64,000 bases of DNA. It comes from a bacterium. Lineage in GTDB: Bacteria; Bacteroidota; Bacteroidia; NS11-12g; UBA955. The notes beneath the pieces are model-generated. The model searched no databases, was not told the origin of the DNA, and saw only the letters and a list, made by a program, of their open reading frames with translations. Positions 7,966-56,180 of this stretch are shown here, piece after piece. The position numbers were made by a program, and so were the translations under genes. Location: positions 1,868 through 65,867 of the forward strand of contig JAQSCZ010000122.1 of the NCBI GenBank assembly GCA_029945665.1, in the 5' to 3' direction. Positions within the stretch are counted from its first letter, which is position 1. Every line of letters begins with the position of its first letter.

Positions 7966-8466
7966 ATGGTTCAAGCATTAATAAATGGCAAATCAATAAG
8001 TATTGAATACTCAAATAAAACTGTAAGCCTCGATGGGGTTGAGAACACCTTGAATATTCTAAGTTTGAACAACCATAAAAACTTACATTTACTTTATAAT
8101 AACCATTCGTATTTTATAGAAGTACTAGAATTCAACAACGCTACTAAAACCTATTTACTCGGTTTTGATGGCAAAACATTTGAAGTTGGAATTAAAGACC
8201 GTTTTGACCAGTTGTTGCACAGCATGGGTCTTGATACCGTCAAAAACAGCAAGGTAAATGAGTTAAAAGCTCCGATGCCAGGACTTGTATTAAGTATAAA
8301 AACAGAGATTGGCCAAGCAGTTAAAAAAGGTGATGCTATTTTAATTTTAGAGGCCATGAAAATGGAGAATGTTATTAAATCACCTACAGACGGGACTATT
8401 AAAACAATTCACATTGTTGATAAACAAGCTGTTGACAAGAACCAAATTCTTATTACTTTTGAATAA
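7966..8466 (+). CDS. Biotin/lipoyl-attachment domain protein (biotin carboxyl carrier-like)
   Basis: C-terminal 'AILILEAMKMENVIKSPTDGTIKTIHI' carries the EAMKM biotinylation motif. Confidence 0.7.
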   Translation: MVQALINGKSISIEYSNKTVSLDGVENTLNILSLNNHKNLHLLYNNHSYFIEVLEFNNATKTYLLGFDGKTFEVGIKDRFDQLLHSMGLDTVKNSKVNELKAPMPGLVLSIKTEIGQAVKKGDAILILEAMKMENVIKSPTDGTIKTIHIVDKQAVDKNQILITFE

Positions 8467-8482
8467 TTACAATTTAATAATC

Positions 8483-9088
8483 ATGAAAACAAAAATCTAC
8501 CTACTATCCTTTCTAACATTGACATTGCTTATCTCCTCATGCGGAAGTTTATCAATTTCCCAAAAACGCTATAGTAGGGGTCTCAATATTGACCTTTTTG
8601 CTTCAAAGGATGCAAAAACGATGGAACAAAAGGCCAAAGTTGCAACAAAAAAATCGGCTAATAATAATCAAGTCAACATTGCTGAAAATATTTCAAATAA
8701 CACCCCAAAATTAAACAATACTGTAGTTGATTTTTCTATAAAATCAGATAAAATTGAAGCAAAGCCGATTAAACTTAATAAATCCTTAATAAAAAATGTA
8801 AGACAACTTAGGAATACAACACAACAAATTTCTAAAGTTTCGAATCAAACATTTAACAATTCTGAGAAAAAATCAGCCTATTCAGCTTCACCAAAAGAAA
8901 ACACGGAAACTGAGACTATTTTGTTAGTTATACTTGCCTTGTTCCCAATCTTATGTTTAATCGCAGTATACTTATACGACGGTGGTATCACCACAAATTT
9001 TTGGATTGATTTGCTTTTACATTTAACTTTCATAGGTGCAATTATTTTTGCGCTACTGGTTGTTCTAGATGTGATCGATTTATCTTAA
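8483..9088 (+). CDS. Hypothetical lipoprotein with N/K-rich low-complexity region and C-terminal TM helices
   Basis: ATG at 8483 gives MKTKIYLLSFLTLTLLISSCGS (lipobox). It is in frame with the longer track ORF 8369.., which I reject because it would overlap the upstream gene. Confidence 0.5.
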   Translation: MKTKIYLLSFLTLTLLISSCGSLSISQKRYSRGLNIDLFASKDAKTMEQKAKVATKKSANNNQVNIAENISNNTPKLNNTVVDFSIKSDKIEAKPIKLNKSLIKNVRQLRNTTQQISKVSNQTFNNSEKKSAYSASPKENTETETILLVILALFPILCLIAVYLYDGGITTNFWIDLLLHLTFIGAIIFALLVVLDVIDLS

Positions 9089-37490: not shown

Positions 37491-38264
37491 ATGAATACTG
37501 ATTCAAGATTAGAGGCCTTCGGAAGATTGCTTACCATAATGGATGAATTAAGGGCTAAGTGTCCTTGGGACAAAGAACAAACCACCGAATCTTTGCGACA
37601 TCTTACCATTGAGGAAACGTATGAATTAAGCGATGCAATTCTCAAAAATGATGCAGAAGAAATAAAGAAGGAACTTGGTGATATTCTATTACACATTGTA
37701 TTTTATGCAAAAATTGGTGCTGAAAAATCACAATTTAATATTGAGGATGTCATTACACAACTTTGCGAAAAATTAATTCGACGCCACCCGCACATTTATG
37801 GTGAGGTAATAGCCGAAGATAGCAACACAGTTAAACAAAACTGGGAACAAATAAAATTGAAGGAAAAGGGAAATGAAAAAAAATCTGTTTTTAATGGCTT
37901 ACCAAATTCGTTGCCATCCCTTTTAAACGCCTATCGAATGCAAGAAAAAGCGGCCCAAGTTGGATTTGACTGGGAAAAAAAAGAACAAGTTTGGGCAAAA
38001 GTAGAAGAAGAATTAGAAGAATTTAAAGTAGCCGATTCAGATTTAGAAAAAGAAAATGAATTAGGTGATTTATTATTCTCATTGGTCAATTATGCGCGAT
38101 TTAGTGCTATCAATCCAGATGATGCGCTTGAAAAAACCAATCGAAAGTTCATCAAGCGTTTTAATTATATTGAAGCCAAAGCCGAAATGCTTAATCTCGA
38201 TCTTAAAACAGTTGGTTTAGCCCAAATGGACCAATGGTGGAACGAGGCTAAACTTATTCCTTAG
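37491..38264 (+). CDS. mazG: Nucleoside triphosphate pyrophosphohydrolase MazG
   Basis: 'LRAKCPWDKEQT...EETYEL', 'ELGDILLHIVFYA', and a second EExxE module. Confidence 0.9.
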   Translation: MNTDSRLEAFGRLLTIMDELRAKCPWDKEQTTESLRHLTIEETYELSDAILKNDAEEIKKELGDILLHIVFYAKIGAEKSQFNIEDVITQLCEKLIRRHPHIYGEVIAEDSNTVKQNWEQIKLKEKGNEKKSVFNGLPNSLPSLLNAYRMQEKAAQVGFDWEKKEQVWAKVEEELEEFKVADSDLEKENELGDLLFSLVNYARFSAINPDDALEKTNRKFIKRFNYIEAKAEMLNLDLKTVGLAQMDQWWNEAKLIP

Positions 38265-38335
38265 CAACAAATCAAAGTCAATACCAACTGCGAATTGAAT
38301 ATTAATTCCTAATATTCGATTATCTTTGCAACCTT

Positions 38336-39430
38336 ATGGATAATACACAAGCCTTAAAATTAGTTGCACTGAATGATTTACACATTTCGCTTGGTGGTAA
38401 AATGGTGCCTTTTGCAGGATTTAACATGCCTGTGCAGTATAGTAATTTAATTCAAGAACACAACCAAGTGCGCAACAGTGTTGGGGTTTTTGATGTTTCT
38501 CACATGGGGGAATTCCACTTAAAAGGCGAAAAAGCCTTGGATTTAATACAATTGGTAACCAGCAATGATGCTTCAAAATTAGTAAATGGAAAAGTTCAAT
38601 ACAGTTGCTTACCGAATAACACGGGTGGTATTGTAGATGATTTATTGGTTTATAAAAACAGCGATACGGAATATTATCTTGTTGTTAACGCTTCAAATAT
38701 TGATAAAGATTGGGATTGGATTTCTTCACATAATACCTTTGGTGTTCAGATGGAAAATATCAGTGATCAATTGAGTTTATTAGCAGTGCAAGGTCCTAAT
38801 GCCATTAAAGCGCTTCAAAAAATTACTGATGTAGACCTTTCTTCGATGGAGTATTACTCTTTTAAACACGGGACAATTGGTGGCTGTGAACATGTTATTA
38901 TTTCAAATACTGGTTATACTGGTGCTGGTGGATTTGAATTGTATGTTGCAAATAAAGATGCCCGCAAATTATGGGATGCTGTATTTGAAGCAGGTGCTGA
39001 ATTTGGCATTCTACCTGCAGGATTAGGCTGCAGAGATACTTTAAGACTCGAAAAAGGTTTTTGTTTATATGGTAATGATATCAATGATACGACCTCTCCT
39101 ATTGAAGCTGGTTTAGGTTGGATCACTAAATTCACTAAAGATTTTGTGAATAGTGCCTATCACAAATCATTAAAAGACAATGGTGTTTCTAAAAAACTTG
39201 TTGGTTTTGAAATGATAGACCGCGGCATTCCCCGTCAACATTACAATATTAAAGATGCGCAGGGCAATACAATTGGCGAAGTTACTTCAGGCACTCAATC
39301 ACCGAGCCTAGGTAAAGCCATAGGATTGGGCTATGTAAACACAGCCTTCAGTACTGCAGATTCTGAAATTTATATTGAGGTTAGAGACAAAGCACTCAAA
39401 GCTAAAGTTGTAAAAATTCCTTTTTTATAA
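38336..39430 (+). CDS. gcvT: Glycine cleavage system aminomethyltransferase T
   Basis: '[16 protein letters not shown]', 364 aa, GcvT fold motifs. Confidence 0.95.
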
Positions 39431-39467
39431 CCCTTGATATTTAGATTAAATCGCTTAAGTTTGAAAT

Positions 39468-40121
39468 ATGAAAAACTTAAGGCTTTTTAATTCTGTGTTT
39501 TTAGGTGTTTTTATTTCTGTTTCGGCATTTGCCCAAAGAGAGTTTTCATCCGTTACCCGCAACAATCCGTATGACAAAATGGTGCATTTTGTGCCACTTC
39601 CATTGTTAGTTGGAGGGTTTGAGATGGGTTATGAGAAGGCTACCACTCATAAAGAATCATTTTATCTGCAAGTTGGATATTATACTGCCAAAAATCCAGG
39701 GCTCTATAAACTTAAAAATGATGGTTATTCAGATATGAATGGACTAAAGTTGGAATGTCAATACCGCTTTTTTAGAAAAACTAATAATTACATAAAAAAT
39801 GTATGGATTGGTCCATTTGTAAATTTCAAGACACTCTCTATGAAATATACAGAAACCACCTATACCACTACCTATAACCCTTATAATGTTAAAACCAATA
39901 CCATTAATGAAAACAGAATGGCAACCTCATTAGCTTTTGGTTACATGATGGGTCTAAGAAAGTCTGTTTTTGAAAATATTTATTTAGATCTTTCATTAGG
40001 AGGTGGCGTATATATTCCAGTTGCAGGTAGCAATCACGAACAATTAAATATTGGACTCATATCCCCATACCAAAGAGGTGTTCAGTTAAGAATGAATTTA
40101 GGGTTTTGTATCGCTTTATAG
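39468..40121 (+). CDS. Predicted outer-membrane beta-barrel protein (DUF3575-like)
   Basis: Signal 'VFISVSAFAQ'. Alternating amphipathic beta-strand pattern. Aromatic C-terminus. Confidence 0.4.
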   Translation: MKNLRLFNSVFLGVFISVSAFAQREFSSVTRNNPYDKMVHFVPLPLLVGGFEMGYEKATTHKESFYLQVGYYTAKNPGLYKLKNDGYSDMNGLKLECQYRFFRKTNNYIKNVWIGPFVNFKTLSMKYTETTYTTTYNPYNVKTNTINENRMATSLAFGYMMGLRKSVFENIYLDLSLGGGVYIPVAGSNHEQLNIGLISPYQRGVQLRMNLGFCIAL

Positions 40122-40135
40122 GACTTTCTACCTAA

Positions 40136-40753
40136 ATGAGAAAAACAGAAATCATTCTAATTGGTGTTTTATGTTTTTCTGCCGTATTTATTCTCAATGG
40201 TTTTACTAAAATAAGCTCAACATTACTCCTCATTTCAAGTAGCTTACTCGCTATACTCTATTTTGCATTTGGGTTCTTATTAATAAACAATAAGCACCTT
40301 TATAAAATATTTAGCAAATCGACTTATGAAGATTTAAATACTTTAAAAATTATTTTAAGCATCTTTTTAGGATTTGTATTCAGCAATATTATCATAGGAA
40401 TTCTTTTTAAACTCATGCTATGGCCTGCATCTGAGCCTATGATAATGACTAGCGGCTTAACGATCATTGTAGGTTTAATTGTATTAGTAATAATTCAACT
40501 TGTGACCCATAAAATTCTGTTCGTTCAAAATCTGCGTTATTTTATTTGGACTGTGTTTTTTGCCATTATTTATCTAATGCCCTACCGAACCTTGATTGAA
40601 GCTAGGTATCTACAAAAATATCCTGATTATTCAAATGCAATGTCGCGCTATTATGAAAATCGCACTTTAGAGAATCAGAAACTATTTGAGGAAGAGAACC
40701 AAAAATATCACGAACTGAAAATGAGTGAATTTGGTGAAAGGGGCACGCGCTAA
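40136..40753 (+). CDS. Hypothetical integral membrane protein
   Basis: Five or six TM helices. No recognised motifs. Confidence 0.35.
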   Translation: MRKTEIILIGVLCFSAVFILNGFTKISSTLLLISSSLLAILYFAFGFLLINNKHLYKIFSKSTYEDLNTLKIILSIFLGFVFSNIIIGILFKLMLWPASEPMIMTSGLTIIVGLIVLVIIQLVTHKILFVQNLRYFIWTVFFAIIYLMPYRTLIEARYLQKYPDYSNAMSRYYENRTLENQKLFEEENQKYHELKMSEFGERGTR

Positions 40754-40755
40754 TC

Positions 40756-41418
40756 TTAATCCTTTAAGAGATGGCTAAAAGACTTTCTAAGTTTACTAAC
40801 CTTTGGATCGATAACAGCTGTGCAGTAACTATTTTCTAGTCTGTTTTGGTTGTAATAATCTTGGTGATAATCTTCGGCATTATAATAAATTCCAAGCGGT
40901 TGAACTTCTGTAACAATTGGATTCTCAAATATTTTTTCTTCTGTTAATTTTTTTATGAATGCTTCTGCACTGTCTTTTTGTTGTGGACTATTGTAAAATA
41001 TAGCTGAGCGATATTGTGTACCTATATCATGGCCTTGTCTATTCAAGGTCGTTGGATCGTGCATGGTAAAAAATACAGTTAGTAAAGTATTGTAATCCAC
41101 GATGTCTGGATTGTAGATAATCTGAACAGCTTCGGCATGGCCTGTAAAACCAGTACAAATTTCCTTATAAGTAGGATCTTTTGTTTTACCTCCAGTATAT
41201 CCGCTAATAACAGTATCAACGCCCTTCAATCTGGCCATCGTTGTTTCAATGCACCAAAAACAGCCGCCTGCAAATGTGGCTGTATCCCTTTTTAAATTAC
41301 TATCATTCATATTTGTTCTATTGCTAACATTATTTGCTTTATTATTGTTTGTTTTGGCATTACAGGCCATTAAACAAAAAACCAAAAATAGGGATAGTGG
41401 CCATTGTAACTTTTTCAT
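40756..41418 (-). CDS. msrA: Peptide-methionine (S)-S-oxide reductase MsrA with N-terminal lipoprotein signal
   Basis: 'GGCFWCIE' active site. N-terminus 'MKKLQWPLSLFLVFCLMACNAK' (lipobox), so it is predicted to be extracytoplasmic. Confidence 0.85.
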   Translation of the reverse strand: MKKLQWPLSLFLVFCLMACNAKTNNNKANNVSNRTNMNDSNLKRDTATFAGGCFWCIETTMARLKGVDTVISGYTGGKTKDPTYKEICTGFTGHAEAVQIIYNPDIVDYNTLLTVFFTMHDPTTLNRQGHDIGTQYRSAIFYNSPQQKDSAEAFIKKLTEEKIFENPIVTEVQPLGIYYNAEDYHQDYYNQNRLENSYCTAVIDPKVSKLRKSFSHLLKD

Positions 41419-43883: not shown

Positions 43884-44552
43884 ATGTCATCCCATCATAT
43901 AGTAAGAGAAGGTCAGGAGCCTGCATTAATCATAGCAAATGGTAGTGCATGTACAATTGAATTGCTCAACCAACTATTAGAATGGAGCCCTTTTATTATA
44001 GTACTTGATGGTGCCCTAAACCGGGTGTTAGATCTGGGTATTAAATTCGATGTTGCTTTGGGCGATTTTGATGGTTTCAATGAAGACCAAATACGTGATT
44101 TAATTCCACCTGATACAGCCATAGAACACACACCCGACCAGAATAAAACAGACCTTGAAAAAGGCATTGAGTTCCTAATCGCAAAGGGCATGGAAGCTGT
44201 AAATATTGTATGGGCTACAGGTAAAAGAAGTGACCATTATCTTAACAATATTGGCACAATTGCAAGATATCATAAACAAATTAAAATGGTCATGTTAGAC
44301 GATTATTCTCGTATTTACGCTATCGATTCGGGCTTTAAAAAACACAAGAACAAAGGTGATAATTTCTCTTTGATTCCTTTAAATGAGGTTAAAAATATTA
44401 AAACAACCAATCTTGACTGGAACTTAAGCAATTCCGATTTAAATTTCCCCTATTCCACTAGCAGTAGCAACAAAGTTTCAAATACAGATTTCGTCAGTAT
44501 CTCTTTCGATTCAGGTTTCTTATTAGCCATGGAATGCAATGATTTGGACTAA
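43884..44552 (+). CDS. Thiamine diphosphokinase
   Basis: 'ALIIANGS...', the 'ALGDFDGF' TPK motif, 222 aa. Confidence 0.65.
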   Translation: MSSHHIVREGQEPALIIANGSACTIELLNQLLEWSPFIIVLDGALNRVLDLGIKFDVALGDFDGFNEDQIRDLIPPDTAIEHTPDQNKTDLEKGIEFLIAKGMEAVNIVWATGKRSDHYLNNIGTIARYHKQIKMVMLDDYSRIYAIDSGFKKHKNKGDNFSLIPLNEVKNIKTTNLDWNLSNSDLNFPYSTSSSNKVSNTDFVSISFDSGFLLAMECNDLD

Positions 44553-46317: not shown

Positions 46318-47204
46318 CTTATAGGACCAGTTAACACATCGAACAATCGTTTATGAAAATAAAGTTTTTCTCTACCAGATTTTTTCTCAATTAACAATCC
46401 CATGCTTTCCAAATGTTTTAAATAGGTGGACGCTGTTTGTCTATGACAATTCATGACTTTTAATAAATCTGCCGCTTTGATAAATGGCTTTTCGAATAAC
46501 AGAACCATCAGTTCGTTGGCCGGCAGTGGATACAAGGTGTACTTATAGAGCATTTCGTGGGTTGATTTTTTCAAATTATTCAAGTCTGTTATTTGCTTTT
46601 GAGCTGCAAGCGCAGCCTCTTGCACAGTGCTTAAAAAGAAAAGAACCCAGCCCTGTAAGTCGTCATTTTCGAATGCATTGTGCAATAACTGATCGGCTGT
46701 TTTTAAATTACTTTTAATCGCAAACGACAACGGCAATAATGGCCATTCTAACAAGCCTTGTTCTTTCATCCAATGATTAAAAATGGTATTGGCTAAAAAG
46801 ACTTGATATTTTAATTCCTCTTTTTGTATGGCAATAAAACCATGTAACAAAGCCATGTATAGCAGGGCATCAGGAGCGGTATTTAATTCTAAATAACTGT
46901 TAATCTCTTTTTTTAATAAAGGTAATTGTACCTTTTTGCGTTTACTTTTTTGAACGAAAGGAAAATTCAAACTGAGTACATTGGCATTCACTTGTTTCAA
47001 ATTCTGACCGATATTTGCCATTTCAAAAATAAGTTGAGCAGTGCTATCATTCAGTTGATTTTCGGAAGCATTGGCTTCGAACACTCTTATGGCTGCTAAA
47101 TTGAACCCATCCATCTCCATAGCACTCCTGGCTTCGCTTATAAATAGCAGATTCAATTCCTCATTGGTCCACTCATTTTTAACCGCTTTTATATAGCCAT
47201 TCAA
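46314..47204 (-). CDS. Fic/Doc-fold-like protein with degenerate active-site motif and C-terminal winged-HTH
   Basis: 'LLHGFIAIQKEEL' sits where Fic proteins carry HPFx[DE]GNGR, and the catalytic residues are not conserved. C-terminal 'HRQTASTYLKHLESMGLLIEKKSGREKLYF' is wHTH-like. Confidence 0.35.
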   Translation of the reverse strand: MNGYIKAVKNEWTNEELNLLFISEARSAMEMDGFNLAAIRVFEANASENQLNDSTAQLIFEMANIGQNLKQVNANVLSLNFPFVQKSKRKKVQLPLLKKEINSYLELNTAPDALLYMALLHGFIAIQKEELKYQVFLANTIFNHWMKEQGLLEWPLLPLSFAIKSNLKTADQLLHNAFENDDLQGWVLFFLSTVQEAALAAQKQITDLNNLKKSTHEMLYKYTLYPLPANELMVLLFEKPFIKAADLLKVMNCHRQTASTYLKHLESMGLLIEKKSGREKLYFHKRLFDVLTGPIS

Positions 47205-47410
47205 CTCCGAAATGGCTTTCCATGTTTCGGTAAGTGCTTTTAAAATGAGATAACTTTCGGCAATTCTATATTCTGATAATTTTTTAATTTTGGACTAATT
47301 TTAAGCAAATATGTCGAAATATTTTTATTTTTTCAACATATTTAAAATTTATTACAAACTTTACTCATTTTATTTGCAGTATAGAAGCCTCAGTTTAATC
47401 CTATTTATTT

Positions 47411-47418
47411 TACTTTTG
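47411..47418 (+). promoter_or_regulatory. Candidate -7 element (TACTTTTG) for glnN
   Basis: Matches Bacteroidetes TAnnTTTG 12 nt upstream of the glnN ATG. I found no well-spaced -33 TTTG. Confidence 0.3.
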
Positions 47419-47429
47419 TACCAATAAAA

Positions 47430-49601
47430 ATGAACACAACCATGGGTGCATCCATTCAACAACAAAACGCTTTAAGAAAGAACATGAAACAAATTTCAGA
47501 GTATTTCGGAGAAAACATTTTCGGGCCACAAGCCATGACCGAATTTGTTAGTAAAGAAGCCATTAAGGCCGTTACTGAATCTAGAAATACTGGCAAACCG
47601 ATGGACCGCAAGATGGCTGATCAAATTGCCGAGGGCATGAAAAATTGGGCCATTAGTAAGGGAGCTACGCATTACACCCATTGGTTTCAACCCTTGAGAG
47701 GATCCACTGCAGAGAAACACGATGCATTTTTCGATCCAACAGGCATCGATACAGGCATGGAATCATTCTCAGGTAAATCATTGGTGCAACAAGAACCCGA
47801 TGCTTCAAGCTTTCCTAATGGGGGTATTCGCAATACTTTCGAAGCCAGAGGTTACAGTGCTTGGGACCCATCCTCGCCTGCATTTATTATGGAAAAAGCA
47901 AGTGGTAAAACCCTTTGTATACCTACTGTTTTTGTTGCCTATACAGGCGAAGCTTTAGATTATAAAGCACCATTAATTAAATCAACTAATTTTTTAACTA
48001 AAACAAGTACGGATGTTTGCCAATATTTTGATACCAAAGTAAAGAACACGAAAGTGTCTTTAGGTATTGAGCAAGAATACTTTTTGGTAGATGCCGAACT
48101 CTATAATCAACGTCCTGATTTGGTGTTTGCAGGCCGAACACTTATGGGCAATATGCCAGCCAAAGGTCAGCAATTAGAAGACCATTACTTTGGCAGCATA
48201 CCAGATAGAGTTTACAATTATATGACCGATTTCGAGCAAGAGGCTTTTAAGTTGGGTATTCCTTTAAAAACTAGACATAATGAGGTTGCTCCAGGTCAGT
48301 TTGAATGTGCTCCAATGTTTGAAGAAGCTGATATTGCAATAGACCATAATTCTTTGTTAATGGATGTCATGCAGAATGTAGCCAACAGACATAATTTAAA
48401 AGTACTTTGGCATGAGAAACCTTTTAAAGGTGTAAACGGTTCAGGTAAACACAACAACTGGTCGATAGTAACCGATACCGGGGTTAATTTATTATCTCCT
48501 GGCCATAGCCCACAAGATAATTTGCAGTTCTTAACTTTCTTTATCAATACCATTAAAGCGGTACACGACCACGATGATTTATTAAGAGCCAGTATTGCCA
48601 CTGCTGCCAACGACCATAGATTGGGTGCTAACGAGGCACCTCCGGCTATTATGTCAGTATTTATTGGTAGCACACTTACACAAGTACTAAATCAGTTTGA
48701 GAGTGCAATTGCAAGCAAGAAACCAAGTAAAGTAAGCGAGAAAACAATCAGTGTTTACCGTATTCCTGAAATTTTATTAGACAATACAGATAGAAACAGA
48801 ACCTCTCCTTTTGCATTTACAGGTAATAAATTTGAGTTCAGAGCCGTTGGTTCAAGCGATCATTGCGCCAATGCTATTATTGTTTTAAATACTATTGTTG
48901 CCAACCAATTGGCCCAATTTAAAAAAGAGGTTGATGCCCTTATTAAAAAGAAAGTTAATAAAACCGAAGCTATTGAACAGATATTGAGAGGCTATGTAAA
49001 ATCAACGAAACGCATATTATTCGAAGGCAATGGCTACGGCGATGCCTGGGTAAAAGAGGCGGCAAAACGCGGTTTAAAAAATGTTAAAACTGCCCCTTAT
49101 GCATTAGATGCTTACAATACCAAAAAGACGCACGATTTATTCATAGACAATAATATTTTTACACCTAGAGAATTAGAAGCAAGAACAGAAATTAAGTTTG
49201 AAAACTACTTGTTGAAAGTGCAGATAGAAGGCCGAATTTTAGGTGAGTTGGTTAAGAACTACGTCATTCCATCAGCAGTAAATTATCAGAAAAGTTTGGT
49301 AGATGCTATAGAAGGTTTAACCAGAATAGGACAAGCCAAATCGGCCACCAAATCTTTGCAAGAAATAGCCCGTGAAATTTCTGAAAACCTAAATGCAATA
49401 TGGGAAAACAATGCAAAGATGACAGAAGAACGCAAGAAAGCCAATAACTTGGCACATGCAGATAAAAGAGCCAAGGCTTATTGCGATAAGGTAAAACCCT
49501 ATTTCGAAAAAATAAGAGAGAGTGCAGATAAACTTGAGGAATTGATAGACAATGATTCTTGGAAACTGCCTAAGTACAGAGATTTGTTGTTCTTTAAATA
49601 A
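47430..49601 (+). CDS. glnN: Glutamine synthetase type III
   Basis: 723 aa with a GSIII-type N-terminus. Both the length and the Bacteroidetes context fit GlnN. Confidence 0.9.
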   Translation: MNTTMGASIQQQNALRKNMKQISEYFGENIFGPQAMTEFVSKEAIKAVTESRNTGKPMDRKMADQIAEGMKNWAISKGATHYTHWFQPLRGSTAEKHDAFFDPTGIDTGMESFSGKSLVQQEPDASSFPNGGIRNTFEARGYSAWDPSSPAFIMEKASGKTLCIPTVFVAYTGEALDYKAPLIKSTNFLTKTSTDVCQYFDTKVKNTKVSLGIEQEYFLVDAELYNQRPDLVFAGRTLMGNMPAKGQQLEDHYFGSIPDRVYNYMTDFEQEAFKLGIPLKTRHNEVAPGQFECAPMFEEADIAIDHNSLLMDVMQNVANRHNLKVLWHEKPFKGVNGSGKHNNWSIVTDTGVNLLSPGHSPQDNLQFLTFFINTIKAVHDHDDLLRASIATAANDHRLGANEAPPAIMSVFIGSTLTQVLNQFESAIASKKPSKVSEKTISVYRIPEILLDNTDRNRTSPFAFTGNKFEFRAVGSSDHCANAIIVLNTIVANQLAQFKKEVDALIKKKVNKTEAIEQILRGYVKSTKRILFEGNGYGDAWVKEAAKRGLKNVKTAPYALDAYNTKKTHDLFIDNNIFTPRELEARTEIKFENYLLKVQIEGRILGELVKNYVIPSAVNYQKSLVDAIEGLTRIGQAKSATKSLQEIAREISENLNAIWENNAKMTEERKKANNLAHADKRAKAYCDKVKPYFEKIRESADKLEELIDNDSWKLPKYRDLLFFK

Positions 49602-49681
49602 GCAACCTATCCCCTCAAACCCTTTGCGAAGGAATTTGAAATTAGATTCATGTAAACAATACTACTTGTACTATTTATTAA

Positions 49682-49715
49682 AAACCCTTTCTGATATGAA
49701 AGGGTTTTTAATTTT
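49682..49715. terminator. Rho-independent bidirectional terminator hairpin
   Basis: AAACCCTTTC-TGATATG-GAAAGGGTTT is a perfect 10-bp stem. It is followed by TTTAATTTT and preceded by AAAA. It lies between convergent glnN (+) and the NTF2-like gene (-). Confidence 0.75.
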
Positions 49716-49908
49716 AACAATAGGAGAAAAGAATTTATTGTTTGGTTTAGGAATTCCCTTTTGTGACTTTTGTGTTTAAAGGTTTCCGGCATTTATTCCA
49801 CTTTGCTTTGAGCTCTCTTATAAATTATAAAAGGGAGCCTGCACCTTGCAAACTCCATTTCCATTGTTTCATTGCTTTAATTGTAAAACAAGTGCTAAAA
49901 TCTTAGCA

Positions 49909-50295
49909 TTAATTTTCGGAATGGTAAAAGAATTGTTCCGAAACAATTTTACCTTCCTCTACTTCGTAAACAGCAATTTCATCCATTTTCATCCTGCCTT
50001 GTTCTTTAACTGTAACATCCATACCCATGGCTACTGTAAAGTAATTACCGGCCACTAGTGGCTGCGAGCAAAAGCCATCGTGCATTTGTTCAACCTTTTG
50101 TTGCCAGGTTTTAGCTTTCTCTTGAATCTTAACAAGTCCTTGAACCGATTCGAAATCTGAATCTTCGGGCTCAATACTAATGGCAGTATCGCTAAATAAT
50201 TCGGATTGAATAAGATCGTACTGTCCTTGTTGGGCAAGTTCGTAAAATCTGTTTGCCACTTCTTGAGTGGAACGGGTGGTGGTTTGGGTGGTCAT
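49909..50295 (-). CDS. NTF2/SnoaL-like fold small protein
   Basis: 128 aa, acidic, secondary-structure pattern typical of NTF2-like. No catalytic motif recognised. Confidence 0.4.
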   Translation of the reverse strand: MTTQTTTRSTQEVANRFYELAQQGQYDLIQSELFSDTAISIEPEDSDFESVQGLVKIQEKAKTWQQKVEQMHDGFCSQPLVAGNYFTVAMGMDVTVKEQGRMKMDEIAVYEVEEGKIVSEQFFYHSEN

Positions 50296-50511: not shown

Positions 50512-51624
50512 TTGAAATTATTACTTTACATACTGTCCTTATTATTGATAGGCAACCTACATGGGCAGGCAATGGCTTTGAAAGTTGTAGATGTGCAACA
50601 ATCTAAATGCGAGCAATTAGAACAAGGTTGCCGATTGCAAAAACGAATTGTTAGCCAAACCTTAATTGGAGACACTTTGAGCACCAACATAGGTATAAGA
50701 TCTAATTGTGGAGGTATATGCGAAGTAGAAGCCTTTGTAAACAAGGATACTTTAAAGATTTATTACCATGAAGGCACAATAAATCGCGATACCATATCTG
50801 ATACTGTAATTTTAATAACAAAAAGTATTGCACGGTGTAAATGCTGTTTCGAATTTAATTTTAAAACAAAAGGACTAAGTGAAATCCCCACGGTAACCAC
50901 CATTAATGATTCAATTTTTAACTATTACCCCAATAAATACAAATTGTTTAAAGTGAATTTCGATTTGCTTAATAAAGATACCGTGAATTATACCGATCTA
51001 TATGGTAGAAAGCAAGGCAAATGGTTAAAGCAAGAAGACGATTCAGATTACATAAACCTTGATAGTAATACCTATATTGCTTATTATAGAGACAACTACC
51101 TAAAGTCTTCTATATATAAAGAGTTTTATAAGAATGGTGTACTAAAATTGGAATACAAAGTAAACAATTTTAACGAGCAAAATGAAACTGAATATTATGA
51201 AAATGGAGATGTAAAGAACCAATATATCAGTTTTGGACAAGGGAGCACTGTCAGTTATGATTTTTACACAAATCAACAAATTGAGCGTATAAGTTACGAA
51301 ACCCAAGGCTTCAAAGAAACCACTACTTTTTATGAAAATGGAGGAATTAAAAGCATTAAAAGCAAATTAATAAACAAGGATTTCTATAGCACTGGTATGC
51401 TTAAAAAAGAAATATTTGGAAACAATGCCCCTAACCATATAAATGCCAAATACTATTACGACAATGGATTGCCAATGGCCATAAAAACTATAAAACCGCA
51501 CAAAGGCAAACCCATTGTAAAATGGAAATGCTACGATAAGCAGGGCAATAGGGTGCCTAGGGAAGCTTTAATAAAGCGAGGGTTTAAATTGCTGGAGGAA
51601 AATTCTGTCTATCTGTATTTCTAA
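50512..51624 (+). CDS. Secreted MORN-variant/YwqK-family repeat protein with Cys-rich N-terminal domain
   Basis: Signal peptide. N-terminal Cys cluster (CEQLEQGC...NCGGIC...RCKCC). C-terminal repeats of the Y-x-NG-x-(L/V)-K type. Confidence 0.45.
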   Translation: MKLLLYILSLLLIGNLHGQAMALKVVDVQQSKCEQLEQGCRLQKRIVSQTLIGDTLSTNIGIRSNCGGICEVEAFVNKDTLKIYYHEGTINRDTISDTVILITKSIARCKCCFEFNFKTKGLSEIPTVTTINDSIFNYYPNKYKLFKVNFDLLNKDTVNYTDLYGRKQGKWLKQEDDSDYINLDSNTYIAYYRDNYLKSSIYKEFYKNGVLKLEYKVNNFNEQNETEYYENGDVKNQYISFGQGSTVSYDFYTNQQIERISYETQGFKETTTFYENGGIKSIKSKLINKDFYSTGMLKKEIFGNNAPNHINAKYYYDNGLPMAIKTIKPHKGKPIVKWKCYDKQGNRVPREALIKRGFKLLEENSVYLYF

Positions 51625-51650
51625 GTGTTACAATTTCATTATTCATACAA

Positions 51651-52094
51651 ATGGACATTAAAGACAAAAACACGTTAGCAATTGGACTTGGACTGACTTT
51701 GGTGACAGTTAGTAATATTATTGGACACTTTGCTGGACCATTTTCTATTTTGGCAACACCAATTCTTTTGACAATAATTATTGCAGGAATAAACTCTCAA
51801 CTATATAAGTCAAATTTTATATTAACAATAGTATATAACTTCGGACTGTTGCTATTGAATGATTTATTGATACGACTTTATGCAGGAGGAACGCATGACC
51901 AAGTTGGAAAGGCTTTGATTTCGCTGTTTTTTATTGTGGCATTTGTATTGGCGCTTATAACAATGGCCATTTATTGCTTTATATCTTTTGACGAAAAATC
52001 AAGGACGAAAAAAATATTAACCAATCTTTTTATTATACTAATTCTAGCAAGCACAACTGGTCTCATTTATGCTTCTGCGCTCTCCAATTTATAA
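51651..52094 (+). CDS. Small hypothetical membrane protein (4 TM)
   Basis: Hydrophobicity only. Confidence 0.35.
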   Translation: MDIKDKNTLAIGLGLTLVTVSNIIGHFAGPFSILATPILLTIIIAGINSQLYKSNFILTIVYNFGLLLLNDLLIRLYAGGTHDQVGKALISLFFIVAFVLALITMAIYCFISFDEKSRTKKILTNLFIILILASTTGLIYASALSNL

Positions 52095-52416
52095 GACATA
52101 AGGTGAAATAAAGCCTGCTATGAGATAAAATTTCCAAATTCTAGGCTTTGTTATTTCGTTAAAAATATCTTGATTTTAAAAACACCATAAAATCAAAGCA
52201 TCAGAATACCCTTTATTCTGCCAGGCTGAGTTTATCGAGGCTTAACTGATACCTAACAAAATCGCCTAAAATCTGCTTTTTGGTTATCTATCTGCCCTCT
52301 TCCTTTAATCTAAAAAACTAAACATGCGAAATATGTAACTTTATTGAAAAATTATGTAATGCATACAAAAATTGAAAAATGCAGCTTTGCAAGCTATCAA
52401 TTCACTAACAATCAAA

Positions 52417-52824
52417 ATGAAAAATATTAAATATACGCTTTTTGTGGCAATTGCCATATTCACGACTTCCTGTGCTTCAAGTATAAAATTCCCCGTTTCA
52501 ACTATCACACCAGCAGCAGAAATAACTGCGGCCATGAAACAGGATAAAAACAAAAACTACGTGATAGAAGTTAACGCAGTTAATCTGGCAAGTCCTGATA
52601 GACTTAATCCTCCAAAAAAAACCTATGTGGTTTGGATTACAACCGCAGACAATGGCACTAAGAATATTGGCCAAATGGTTATTAAAAACGCTCAAAAATC
52701 TTATCTAAAAACAAGCACACCTTTTAAAGCTTTAGAAATATTTATTACCGCAGAGGATCAAGGCGATATTTCGTATCCTTCGGGAGTTGAGATATCTAGA
52801 ACAATTGTTTCAAGTAAGAAATAA
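52417..52824 (+). CDS. Hypothetical lipoprotein
   Basis: ATG at 52417 gives MKNIKYTLFVAIAIFTTSCASS. In frame with the longer track ORF starting at 52372. Confidence 0.4.
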   Translation: MKNIKYTLFVAIAIFTTSCASSIKFPVSTITPAAEITAAMKQDKNKNYVIEVNAVNLASPDRLNPPKKTYVVWITTADNGTKNIGQMVIKNAQKSYLKTSTPFKALEIFITAEDQGDISYPSGVEISRTIVSSKK

Positions 52825-52879
52825 ATTGACTTTTTAATAGTTTCTTAGCATTCCTTGTTGTTTCATCAAGGAATTGTAA

Positions 52880-54295
52880 TTACCACTTAACCTTATACCC
52901 TTTTTTAACTCGCACACCAGTATAGGGCAATACACACCTAAAACCTAATAATGGCAAGGCTTTACTCTGTTCTAGTTGTGATACCTTGTGAGTGGTATTT
53001 TTATAATTGGAGGCTAAGTATTTGCGTTTCATATTGGTATTATCGCTTACAAACCTACTGGCCCATTTTTCATTTAATGAATCTTTGGTAATCATTTCAG
53101 GATAAATACCTTGGCTATTCAAATATACTTTGAAATTATTTTTATAAAATTGGGCATATTGCGTAAAATGCTTGTAATAAACCTTTTTCAAAATACTATC
53201 CATATACTTTTCTTTTTGATGATAAAAGGGATTTGGAAAAAAGACTTTGTATAATTGATAATCAAACAATCTTGGATTTGTTAGGTATATTGGTTCATTA
53301 AGAGCCGATACTTGAACGAATCTATATTTTAAACGCCCAATACTGTCTTTTTCTTCTATCTAGCCATATTGATCTAATGGATTTGAATACATAAAACTAT
53401 ACCATCCATTGATTAGCAAAACATCGTATTCCGCTATCCCTGTGCCTTGCCGATAGTTTTCTAAATCGAGCAGCCATTCTGAAACACCACTGTAAAAATT
53501 GAAACCTATTTTTTCGAAATTAGAAGATTGTTTAGTTTTATACGAATTTACAAGTTGATAATAAAGCATCCATTTATCAAGAAAATCAGATTGATTGAGG
53601 GAGTTCGTAATAGTTTTTGAGTTTTGTAAATCATTAGTGTAGGAGGCTGCCAAATTCCATTCTGCTTCTGTTGGCAGGCGGTATTGCGGAAAAAGTATAC
53701 CATCCTCTACTTTTACATATTCTTTAGATTTTTGTTCTCTACCTTTAATAAAATTATTAAAATTATTTCCTTTTTCAGGCAAATAAACTTCATTCAAATA
53801 GGACTCGGTATTAAAATTATGATCATCAGTTGTTTTACTCATATCAATATTAATAATTTCAGTTTTATCTAAAATCATTTCATTTAGGCGGTCTGTTTTC
53901 CATTCCAAATAAGATTTAACTTGAAACCATGTTACACCAGTAACAGGATACCACATAAAGGCTGGATGGTTGTTGTAATCTTGAATCATAGGGTCGTTAT
54001 ATTGCAACCATAAACCGCCTACTGTATCTTTGGGATAGGCCTGCTTATAAACCTCCGGATAGCTTTGGAAAACATTTTTTAACCACAGGATATAGGTTTT
54101 ATAATGAATATTGGATTCTTCGGTAACGCTTATGTAATAAGGCAACAAAGTATCGGATTGAACCAGCACCATACCTTGTGGCGCAGTTTGAGTTAATTGT
54201 TCATTGAAAGTAGTATGAAGATTTGTTGAACTTTGTAATAAAAACCAAAACCCTACCAAAGAAACTAGCATGCCAAATAAAATTGTCCTTTTCAT
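52880..54295 (-). pseudogene. SUMF1/FGE-sulfatase family (GldJ/GldK-like) secreted protein interrupted by a single in-frame TAG
   Basis: Two track ORFs (53360..54295 and 52880..53269) lie in the same frame, separated only by a TAG at 53360-53362. Reading through gives ...PLDQYG*IEEKDSIGRLKYRF... The N-terminal part has the FGE motif 'YRLPTEAEWNLAAS' and the C-terminal part ends in 'LGFRCVLPY'. Confidence 0.6.
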
Positions 54296-54354
54296 CTTTA
54301 ATTAGATTGTAAACAAATATATAGCAATTATAGCCAAAGGTAAACTAAAATACC

Positions 54355-54957
54355 TCACAACAACTCCAACTGTCTTGGCAATAATGCAAAACTCATGCGG
54401 TGGTGGGCATTGGCACCATATAAGCGTATGGCATCACGGTGTTTTAGGGTACCATAGCCTTTGTTCTGTTGCCAATGGTATTCAGGAAAATCCAAAGCCA
54501 ATTTTTCCATGTAGGCATCACGGTGGGTTTTAGCCAATATGGAGGCTGCCGCTATGCTCTTCAATTTACCATCGCCTTTTACAACCGTGGTATAAGGTAT
54601 ATTTTTATAGGGTTTAAAACGGTTGCCATCTACTAAAATATGGTCAAAGCTTTCTGTAAGTGCATCGAGGGCCAAGTGCATGGCTTTAATAGAGGCATTC
54701 AGAATATTAATCTTGTCTATTTCCAGAGGCGAAAGGGTGGCCACGGCCCATATACATTGCTCCTCGATTAATGGGCGCAATAATTGCCTCTGCTTTTCGC
54801 TAAGTTGTTTAGAGTCGTGTTAGACATTCAAGCCTTGCAATTCCACTCCGTTGGGAATAATAACTGCTGCTGCAAATACTGGTCCTGCCAAACAACCTCG
54901 GCCCGCTTCATCGCAACCGGCTTCAATTCGATTGGGTAGAAGGAAATCAGTTAGCAT
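54355..54957 (-). pseudogene. rnhB: Ribonuclease HII interrupted by an in-frame 9-nt insertion containing TAA
   Basis: Manual translation from the ATG at 54957 gives [59 protein letters not shown], followed by the track ORF (TTG start) 54355..54780. The conserved GLNDSKxLS motif is split by GTC-TAA-CAC (TAA at 54820-54822). Confidence 0.7.
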
Positions 54958-55026
54958 ATTATTAAAAACAATTTGTTGGGACATGATATATCATGTCTCA
55001 ACAAAATCGTAAAAATTGCAATATTA

Positions 55027-55574: not shown

Positions 55575-56180
55575 TTATTTTTTTCCGAATAAATTTGATA
55601 TGATATTTAAAATGCCGCCGCCGCTTTGTGCAGTTTGGGTTTGATTGGTATTATTTGATGTTTCTGTAGCACCTGTGAACATGCCAATGATATTACTGAT
55701 ATCTAGTCCACCAGCACCACCTGTAAATTTACCTATTAAATCTGAAATACCTCCAGAATCAGAAACACCTGTTTGTTGTTTTTGTTTGCCTAAATAACCC
55801 ATTATTACAGGGGCTATCAAGGGTAATAACTTAGAAATACTACTAGCATCTGCTCCACTATTGGCGGCCAATGCATTTTCCACCTGACCTTTGTTATCGC
55901 CTAATAAATGTTTAAGAATACCTTCACCTTGGGAATTGCCTCCACCTTGAAAGAATCCCATCACATCATCTAACACACTACCGTCGTGGTCGCGATCAAG
56001 GGCAGCCATCAAGCCATTTGCTCCACCATTGCTTACGTTGTTCTGTATGGCACTAAAAAGAGTCGGAACAGCTTGCTGTAAGGCGGCTGTCGTTTGACCT
56101 TTATCGGCTCCAATTTGTTGACTTAATGAATTAATTTCACTGTCACCAAATAGGTTCATTAGTTGATTTAAATCGCTCAT
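55575..56180 (-). CDS. Gly/Ser-rich DUF937-like protein
   Basis: Low-complexity G/S/Q-rich with 'LLGG'-type repeats. Function unknown. Confidence 0.4.

Follow-up and report, generated by a model that had tools for sequence, protein, structure and literature searches.

A frame encoding RNase HII (rnhB) is interrupted by a stop codon in the 64-kb stretch of DNA analysed here (hereafter the window), part of a metagenome-assembled Bacteroidota genome, which raises the question of whether the gene has been lost, is still decoded in some way, or was broken during assembly. The gene lies on the minus strand at 54984..54355, its closing TGA ending at 54355. Nine extra bases (minus strand, 54817..54825; GTCTAACAC in the placement of the initial annotation), absent from all relatives, stand between the GLN and DSK codons and bring an in-frame TAA at 54820..54822. 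The minus strand at this site reads GGC TTG AAT GTC TAA CAC GAC TCT AAA, that is, G L N V stop H D S K. The 5′ fragment (minus strand, 54823..54984) holds the DEAGRG catalytic motif and reads up to ...GVELQGLNV. The 3′ fragment (minus strand, 54355..54816) is in frame with it, with 154 codons open past the TAA, and runs from DSKQLSEKQR to the natural TGA with the DSK, VDGN, and HRD motifs. Sequence and translation thus agree with the initial annotation, which had described rnhB as broken at its GLNDSK motif by this TAA. The same annotation had taken the ATG at 54957 as the N-terminus of the protein; this codon exists and is likely the true start, and it matches the start of the 197-aa homologs and is the one used by most homologs. 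The alternative is the ATG at 54984, further upstream, which yields the 206-aa version annotated in the sister genome described below. Translation halts at 54 residues from the ATG at 54984 and at 45 residues from the ATG at 54957.

For the Pfam and NCBIfam profile scans, the stop in the joined rnhB product was masked as X. The joined product matched Pfam RNase_HII (PF01351) with an E-value of 2.6e-36 and 125.9 bits (cut-off, 25.8), and the NCBIfam ribonuclease HII equivalog (NF000595) with 224.1 bits (cut-off, 167). It also aligned along its length with the RNase HII structures of E. coli (7UWE chain C) and Thermotoga maritima (3O3F/3O3G), and the DEAGRG, DSK, DGN, and RD motifs (4/4), split over the two fragments, aligned with those of the E. 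coli enzyme (7UWE_C). The full-length profile match and the motifs are those of bacterial RNase HII, and the gene has the neighbours that it has in sister genomes, namely upstream genes for a cyclophilin-type PPIase and a DUF937 protein. Unlike members of the family, the window ORF is cut by a TAA, and its DEAGRG-to-DSK spacing is 32 residues, compared with 29 residues in 120/120 closest homologs. Judged on these grounds, the window rnhB is an RNase HII gene by descent and, as written, not a functional member of the family.

The site was then compared with that of relatives. A scan at one genome per species returned 80 rnhB loci, of which the closest, L001 and L002 (91% and 82% at the amino acid level, respectively), both read GLNDSKQL without extra codons; the DNA alignment displays a clean 9-column gap. 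A sister genome was found by an exact-protein look-up using the neighbouring cyclophilin gene (GCA_038205575.1, contig JBBRBR010000002.1, locus L081). It shares 98.7% DNA identity with the window over 5.2 kb, and its rnhB is intact, encodes 206 aa, and reads GGCTTAAACGACTCT at the site. Among the 120 closest RNase HII homologs in a collection of 5.8 billion proteins, GLNDSK occurs in 106, the remainder having close variants (xxNDSK-type). An insert between GLN and DSK was found in none of these 120 homologs and is also absent from L081, L001, and L002. We therefore rejected a lineage-specific insertion of three residues that was later mutated to a stop; relatives with three extra residues and no stop, named by the initial annotation as a case that would refute its reading, were searched for among the 120 homologs and the inspected loci and were not found. 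An exact look-up of the 54-aa truncated product showed that no other public assembly or contig carries it, and a JGI metagenome scan for either rnhB allele gave no match.

The comparison with the sister genome also bears on the age of the lesion. From 55692 to 54676, about 1 kb of near-identical sequence, the two genomes differ by one mismatch only (54998) besides the lesion. The flanks of the lesion are identical to L081 for more than 140 nt on each side, with 54997 to 54831 being 100% identical. Once the nine bases are taken out, the gene and the sister allele are unlike at 16 codons, of which 14 lie in the 3′ fragment (12 synonymous and 2 non-synonymous). Since 14/16 of the differing codons are synonymous, rnhB was under purifying selection until recently. 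The window has zero indels against the sister genome over 19.8 kb; therefore, the rnhB lesion is not part of a general indel noise. Given that the sister gene is intact and that the surrounding 1 kb is otherwise near-identical, the lesion is private to the strain and very recent, and these comparisons support the suggestion that rnhB is a recent pseudogene. The DUF937 gene (minus strand, 55575-56180) has a 3-nt in-frame deletion at approximately 55714, and its product is 201 aa long versus 202 aa in the sister genome; this is the only indel besides the rnhB lesion in the approximately 25 kb compared.

The form of the lesion is less simple than the clean 9-nt insertion first described. The 9-column gap against relatives is indeed clean, but no single contiguous 9-nt insertion can convert the sister allele GGCTTAAACGACTCT into the window sequence GGCTTGAATGTCTAACACGACTCT; the change needs either two insertions, of 8 nt (GAATGTCT) and of 1 nt (C), or one of 9 nt together with one substitution or more. 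The nine extra bases can be shifted by a few nucleotides, with TGTCTAACA, ATGTCTAAC, or GAATGTCT plus C as equally valid placements. The resemblance of the insert to the downstream sequence, also pointed out in the initial annotation, holds with a restriction: GTCTAACAC is a subsequence within the 13 nt that follow (GACTCTAAACAAC), which is the case at approximately 0.3% of window positions, this figure being post hoc because the 13-nt length was picked after the data were seen. The insert matches the preceding native 9-mer, the intact target GGCTTAAAC, at 6/9 positions, and has 4/9 bases in common with GGCTTGAAT. Judged by sequence, it resembles a degraded copy of the adjacent GACTCTAAACAAC or GGCTTAAAC.

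Other sources of the extra bases were considered. No second copy of TGAATGTCTAACACG was found in the window at up to 3 mismatches, and the best local resemblance to the insert, TGAATGCCT at 54701-54693, is a weak one (8/9 match); template switching from a nearby donor is unsupported on both counts. The footprint of an IS or transposon of the families that leave 9-bp target-site duplications was rejected, as there is no exact target duplication and no element or IS ends. Comparison with the TruSeq and Nextera adapters gave short partial resemblances alone and no identity.

The only other public assembly of the same strain is that of Logan, from run SRR23006903, for which a literature search found nothing. 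Those contigs share 100% identity with the window across stretches of 4.7, 5.5, and 5.3 kb, but break exactly at the lesion. One contig (_3700, L082) terminates at window position 54842 (...GGAGTGGA). Another (_12211, L084) begins at 54825 with GGCTAACACGACTCT and matches the window perfectly from 54823 onward; at 54824, it has G where the window has T (GG versus GT). The head of this second contig reproduces CTAACACGACTCT, TAA included. The 16 bridging bases of the window (minus strand, 54826..54841; ATTGCAAGGCTTGAAT) are absent from both contigs, and neither they nor the left half of the insert are reproduced. The Logan head GGCTAACACGACTCT has the length of the intact GGCTTAAACGACTCT, with two mismatches, and can be read in two ways, either as the window allele with one base altered or as an un-inserted gene with two substitutions (GGC TAA CAC GAC). 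The corresponding alleles are GGCTTGAATGTCTAACACGAC in the window, GGCTAACACGAC for the un-inserted length with two substitutions, and GGCTTAAACGAC for the intact gene.

Because CTAACAC before GACTCT, with its TAA in frame with the downstream ORF, was reproduced independently, some disruption of rnhB exists in the reads. The exact sequence of the lesion rests partly on thin read support, and its left half and the join are without independent confirmation. Given contigs of 5-15 kb, the chance of a break within approximately 20 nt of a given site was estimated to be below approximately 1%; hence, the Logan break is probably linked to the lesion, most simply via the G/T disagreement at 54824 and a bridging coverage of approximately 1x. 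A second Logan break, at 43983/43994, has a 12-nt overlap and no mismatch, and suggests coverage-dip breaks in a thinly covered genome.

The region around rnhB was inspected as well. The gene downstream of it (minus strand, 54295..52880) is a 471-codon GldJ/SUMF1-like paralog with an FGE-sulfatase domain, and it is cut by an in-frame TAG at 53362-53360. This TAG, which the Logan contig L084 also carries, aligns with a near-invariant Glu (D.YGEI.EKDS.GR) of 13 full-length homologs and is therefore a plain GAG-to-TAG nonsense mutation, independent of the rnhB lesion. NCBI lists the 311-aa N-terminal piece as protein MDI1235654.1 with no pseudogene label. Together with three ORFs that have no Pfam match, the GldJ-like pseudogene makes up a strain-specific island (approximately 50631-54330) between rnhB and SnoaL_5/GlnA, at the position where the sister genome has a response regulator, a histidine kinase, and a Por_Secre_tail protein. 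Homology to the sister genome stops 25 nt past the rnhB stop. The last 350 nt or so of rnhB, beside the island, are approximately 5% divergent from the sister genome versus an average of approximately 1%, which would fit a recombination tract. Across 30136-59569, compared with L081/L086, the divergence is mosaic, with 0 mismatches per 500 nt over 38000-41000 and 46500-48000 and a peak of up to 23 mismatches per 500 nt at 49500-50000, the pattern that would be expected of recombination tracts in a natural population.

On the other side of the gene, the upstream ATG of rnhB and the interval that follows the PPIase gene are covered by a 34-nt palindrome (54972-55005), whose 17-nt arms adjoin without a spacer. 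The arms match perfectly in the sister locus L081 and have one mismatch in the window; the midpoint of the palindrome is where a Logan contig (L083) of a different sample ends. The palindrome may be a terminator or an operator, or may simply be a trap for k-mer assembly. Elsewhere in the window, an ORF at 8369-9088 (plus strand) overlaps the end of a biotinyl-domain gene (7966-8466) by approximately 100 nt. A frameshift across 7966-9088 was rejected; these are two separate genes, the second ORF being over-extended upstream, and its true start is likely an internal ATG that precedes a signal peptide of the lipoprotein type (MKTKIYLLSFLTLTLLISSC).

We consider it probable, though by no means settled, that rnhB has undergone an ordinary, very recent, strain-private knock-out by a complex 9-nt insertion, the resulting allele being null. 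One very recent complex mutation would have added a net nine bases between the GLN and DSK codons and brought in the TAA. The truncated product would retain DEAGRG and lack DSK as well as both catalytic aspartates of the C-terminal part, and the allele, predicted to have lost its function, would be a pseudogene in the making. Since the insert resembles a degraded copy of GACTCTAAACAAC or GGCTTAAAC, it may have arisen by a small local imperfect duplication or by an error-prone repair event. E. coli and B. subtilis can do without RNase HII, their ribonucleotide excision repair being backed up by nucleotide excision repair and by other RNases H; a null rnhB allele would therefore be viable. No second RNase H gene was found within the 64-kb window.

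The locus resembles an ordinary young bacterial pseudogene in that the lesion is strain-private, the gene is otherwise intact with a history of purifying selection, and the neighbouring gene has a second nonsense mutation, which indicates that the strain carries such lesions. Unlike in an ordinary indel pseudogene, the lesion in the window is complex: it affects more than one base and is no clean tandem duplication. One natural event would not usually yield 8 + 1 nt, or 9 nt with a substitution, and this speaks against the knock-out, as does the possibility that a single read underlies both the bridging bases and the left half of the insert. The truncated product being in no other assembly, the knock-out is also without population-level confirmation. 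Taken as a recent knock-out, the lesion is an already known kind of event, the inactivation of a gene in a single MAG strain.

A possible, though clearly less probable, explanation is an artefact of assembly or consensus, in which the low-coverage bridge at 54841-54826 came from one erroneous or chimeric read or from a gap-closing tip join. The real allele may then differ from that of the window, having the un-inserted length with the two substitutions seen in the Logan head, or may even be an intact gene. The initial annotation had argued that a three-codon insertion with a stop is not a typical artefact, a statement that does not hold as made, since the Logan assembly breaks at the exact point, where a chance break is so rarely expected, and disagrees at 54824. 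An artefact is also favoured by the other Logan break at 43983/43994, which indicates a coverage-limited assembly, by the agreement in length of the Logan head with the intact allele, and by the look of the insert, which resembles the following 13 nt with many deletions and is what stutter in an alignment or consensus would give. However, CTAACACGACTCT in the Logan contig is unlike the intact allele, and its TAA shares the frame of the downstream ORF; Logan, moreover, keeps only k-mers seen at least twice, so that some lesion must be present in the reads. The absence of window indels against the sister genome over 19.8 kb argues that the assembler was not routinely adding them, and one error or SNP in the Logan "GG" reads would reconcile everything with a real window allele. 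As in low-coverage junctions and tip-joining errors of metagenome assemblies, an independent k-mer assembly breaks here and one base differs; unlike in such errors, part of the lesion, including the stop, recurs in the independent assembly. A misjoin of two distant loci was rejected, as the order from PPIase-rnhB to SnoaL-GlnA is the same in the sister contig.

It is improbable that the window sequence reflects population heterogeneity, with intact, G-stop-H substitution, and 9-nt insert alleles, or a larger unresolved insertion, collapsed by the MAG assembler. Both Logan contigs end at this site, and GG and GT both precede CTAACAC; the site also lies within the 322-nt interval (54998-54676) in which low divergence changes to the tract of approximately 5%, near the strain-specific island. 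Against this reading, the left Logan contig stops 11 nt before the first base that is unlike the intact allele, and its last 30 nt are plain rnhB with no repeat or mobile-element end. The junction sequence occurs only once in the window, even when up to 3 mismatches are allowed, there is no perfect target-site duplication, and the gene order on both sides agrees with that of the sister genome.

Least of all do the data favour an active RNase HII that is still made because the TAA is read through (inserting V-X-H), because ribosomes bypass the nine bases, or because translation re-initiates and the two fragments assemble, and we regard this as very unlikely. The insert keeps the frame and the 154 downstream codons are open and conserved, with nothing else in favour; an open downstream frame is, however, also what a very young lesion would leave. 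TAA is a normal terminator here, closing 49/59 long ORFs in the window, and UAA is read by both release factors, so that its readthrough is very low. No homolog tolerates extra residues at the site. The flanking codons (AAT or GTC versus CAC or GAC) are unmatched as take-off and landing pairs, AAT GTC TAA CAC GAC contains no in-frame matching codon pair that would restore GLNDSK, and the only AAC for a landing of tRNA-Asn lies 7 nt downstream and out of frame. Because the flanks are identical to those of a strain that lacks the insert, there is no dedicated or co-evolved recoding signal. The local RNA structure was not significant (minimum free energy, -22.2 kcal/mol versus a shuffle mean of -19.2; z = -0.87), and no Rfam element matched.

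With programmed bypassing of the phage T4 gene 60 type and with stop readthrough, rnhB shares one feature, a short stop-containing stretch in a continuous frame; unlike in T4 gene 60, rnhB has neither a take-off hairpin nor codons that match for take-off and landing, and its relatives do not conserve the gap. The readthrough or bypass that had been offered as the alternative to a pseudogene thus finds no support. An alternative genetic code or suppression was also rejected from the window data: TAA is the main terminator, no tRNA genes, suppressors included, were found within the window, and only two genes in the 64 kb have in-frame stops. We give equally little credence to the combined view that the stop is bypassed, or the fragments reassembled, with activity kept, or that a hypervariable multi-allele site explains the assembly failure; in that view, the in-frame TAG of the next gene might point to local suppression.

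The locus carries a methodological lesson, in that an apparently clean in-frame lesion of a MAG sits where an independent assembly of the same strain breaks, and such lesions need read-level confirmation before any claim of recoding is made. Beyond annotation, the rnhB lesion matters little. If it is real, rnhB should be labelled as one pseudogene rather than split into two ORFs, and the strain lacks RNase HII. RNase HII starts ribonucleotide excision repair, and given this role, the mutation spectrum of the strain may be mildly altered if the lesion is real.
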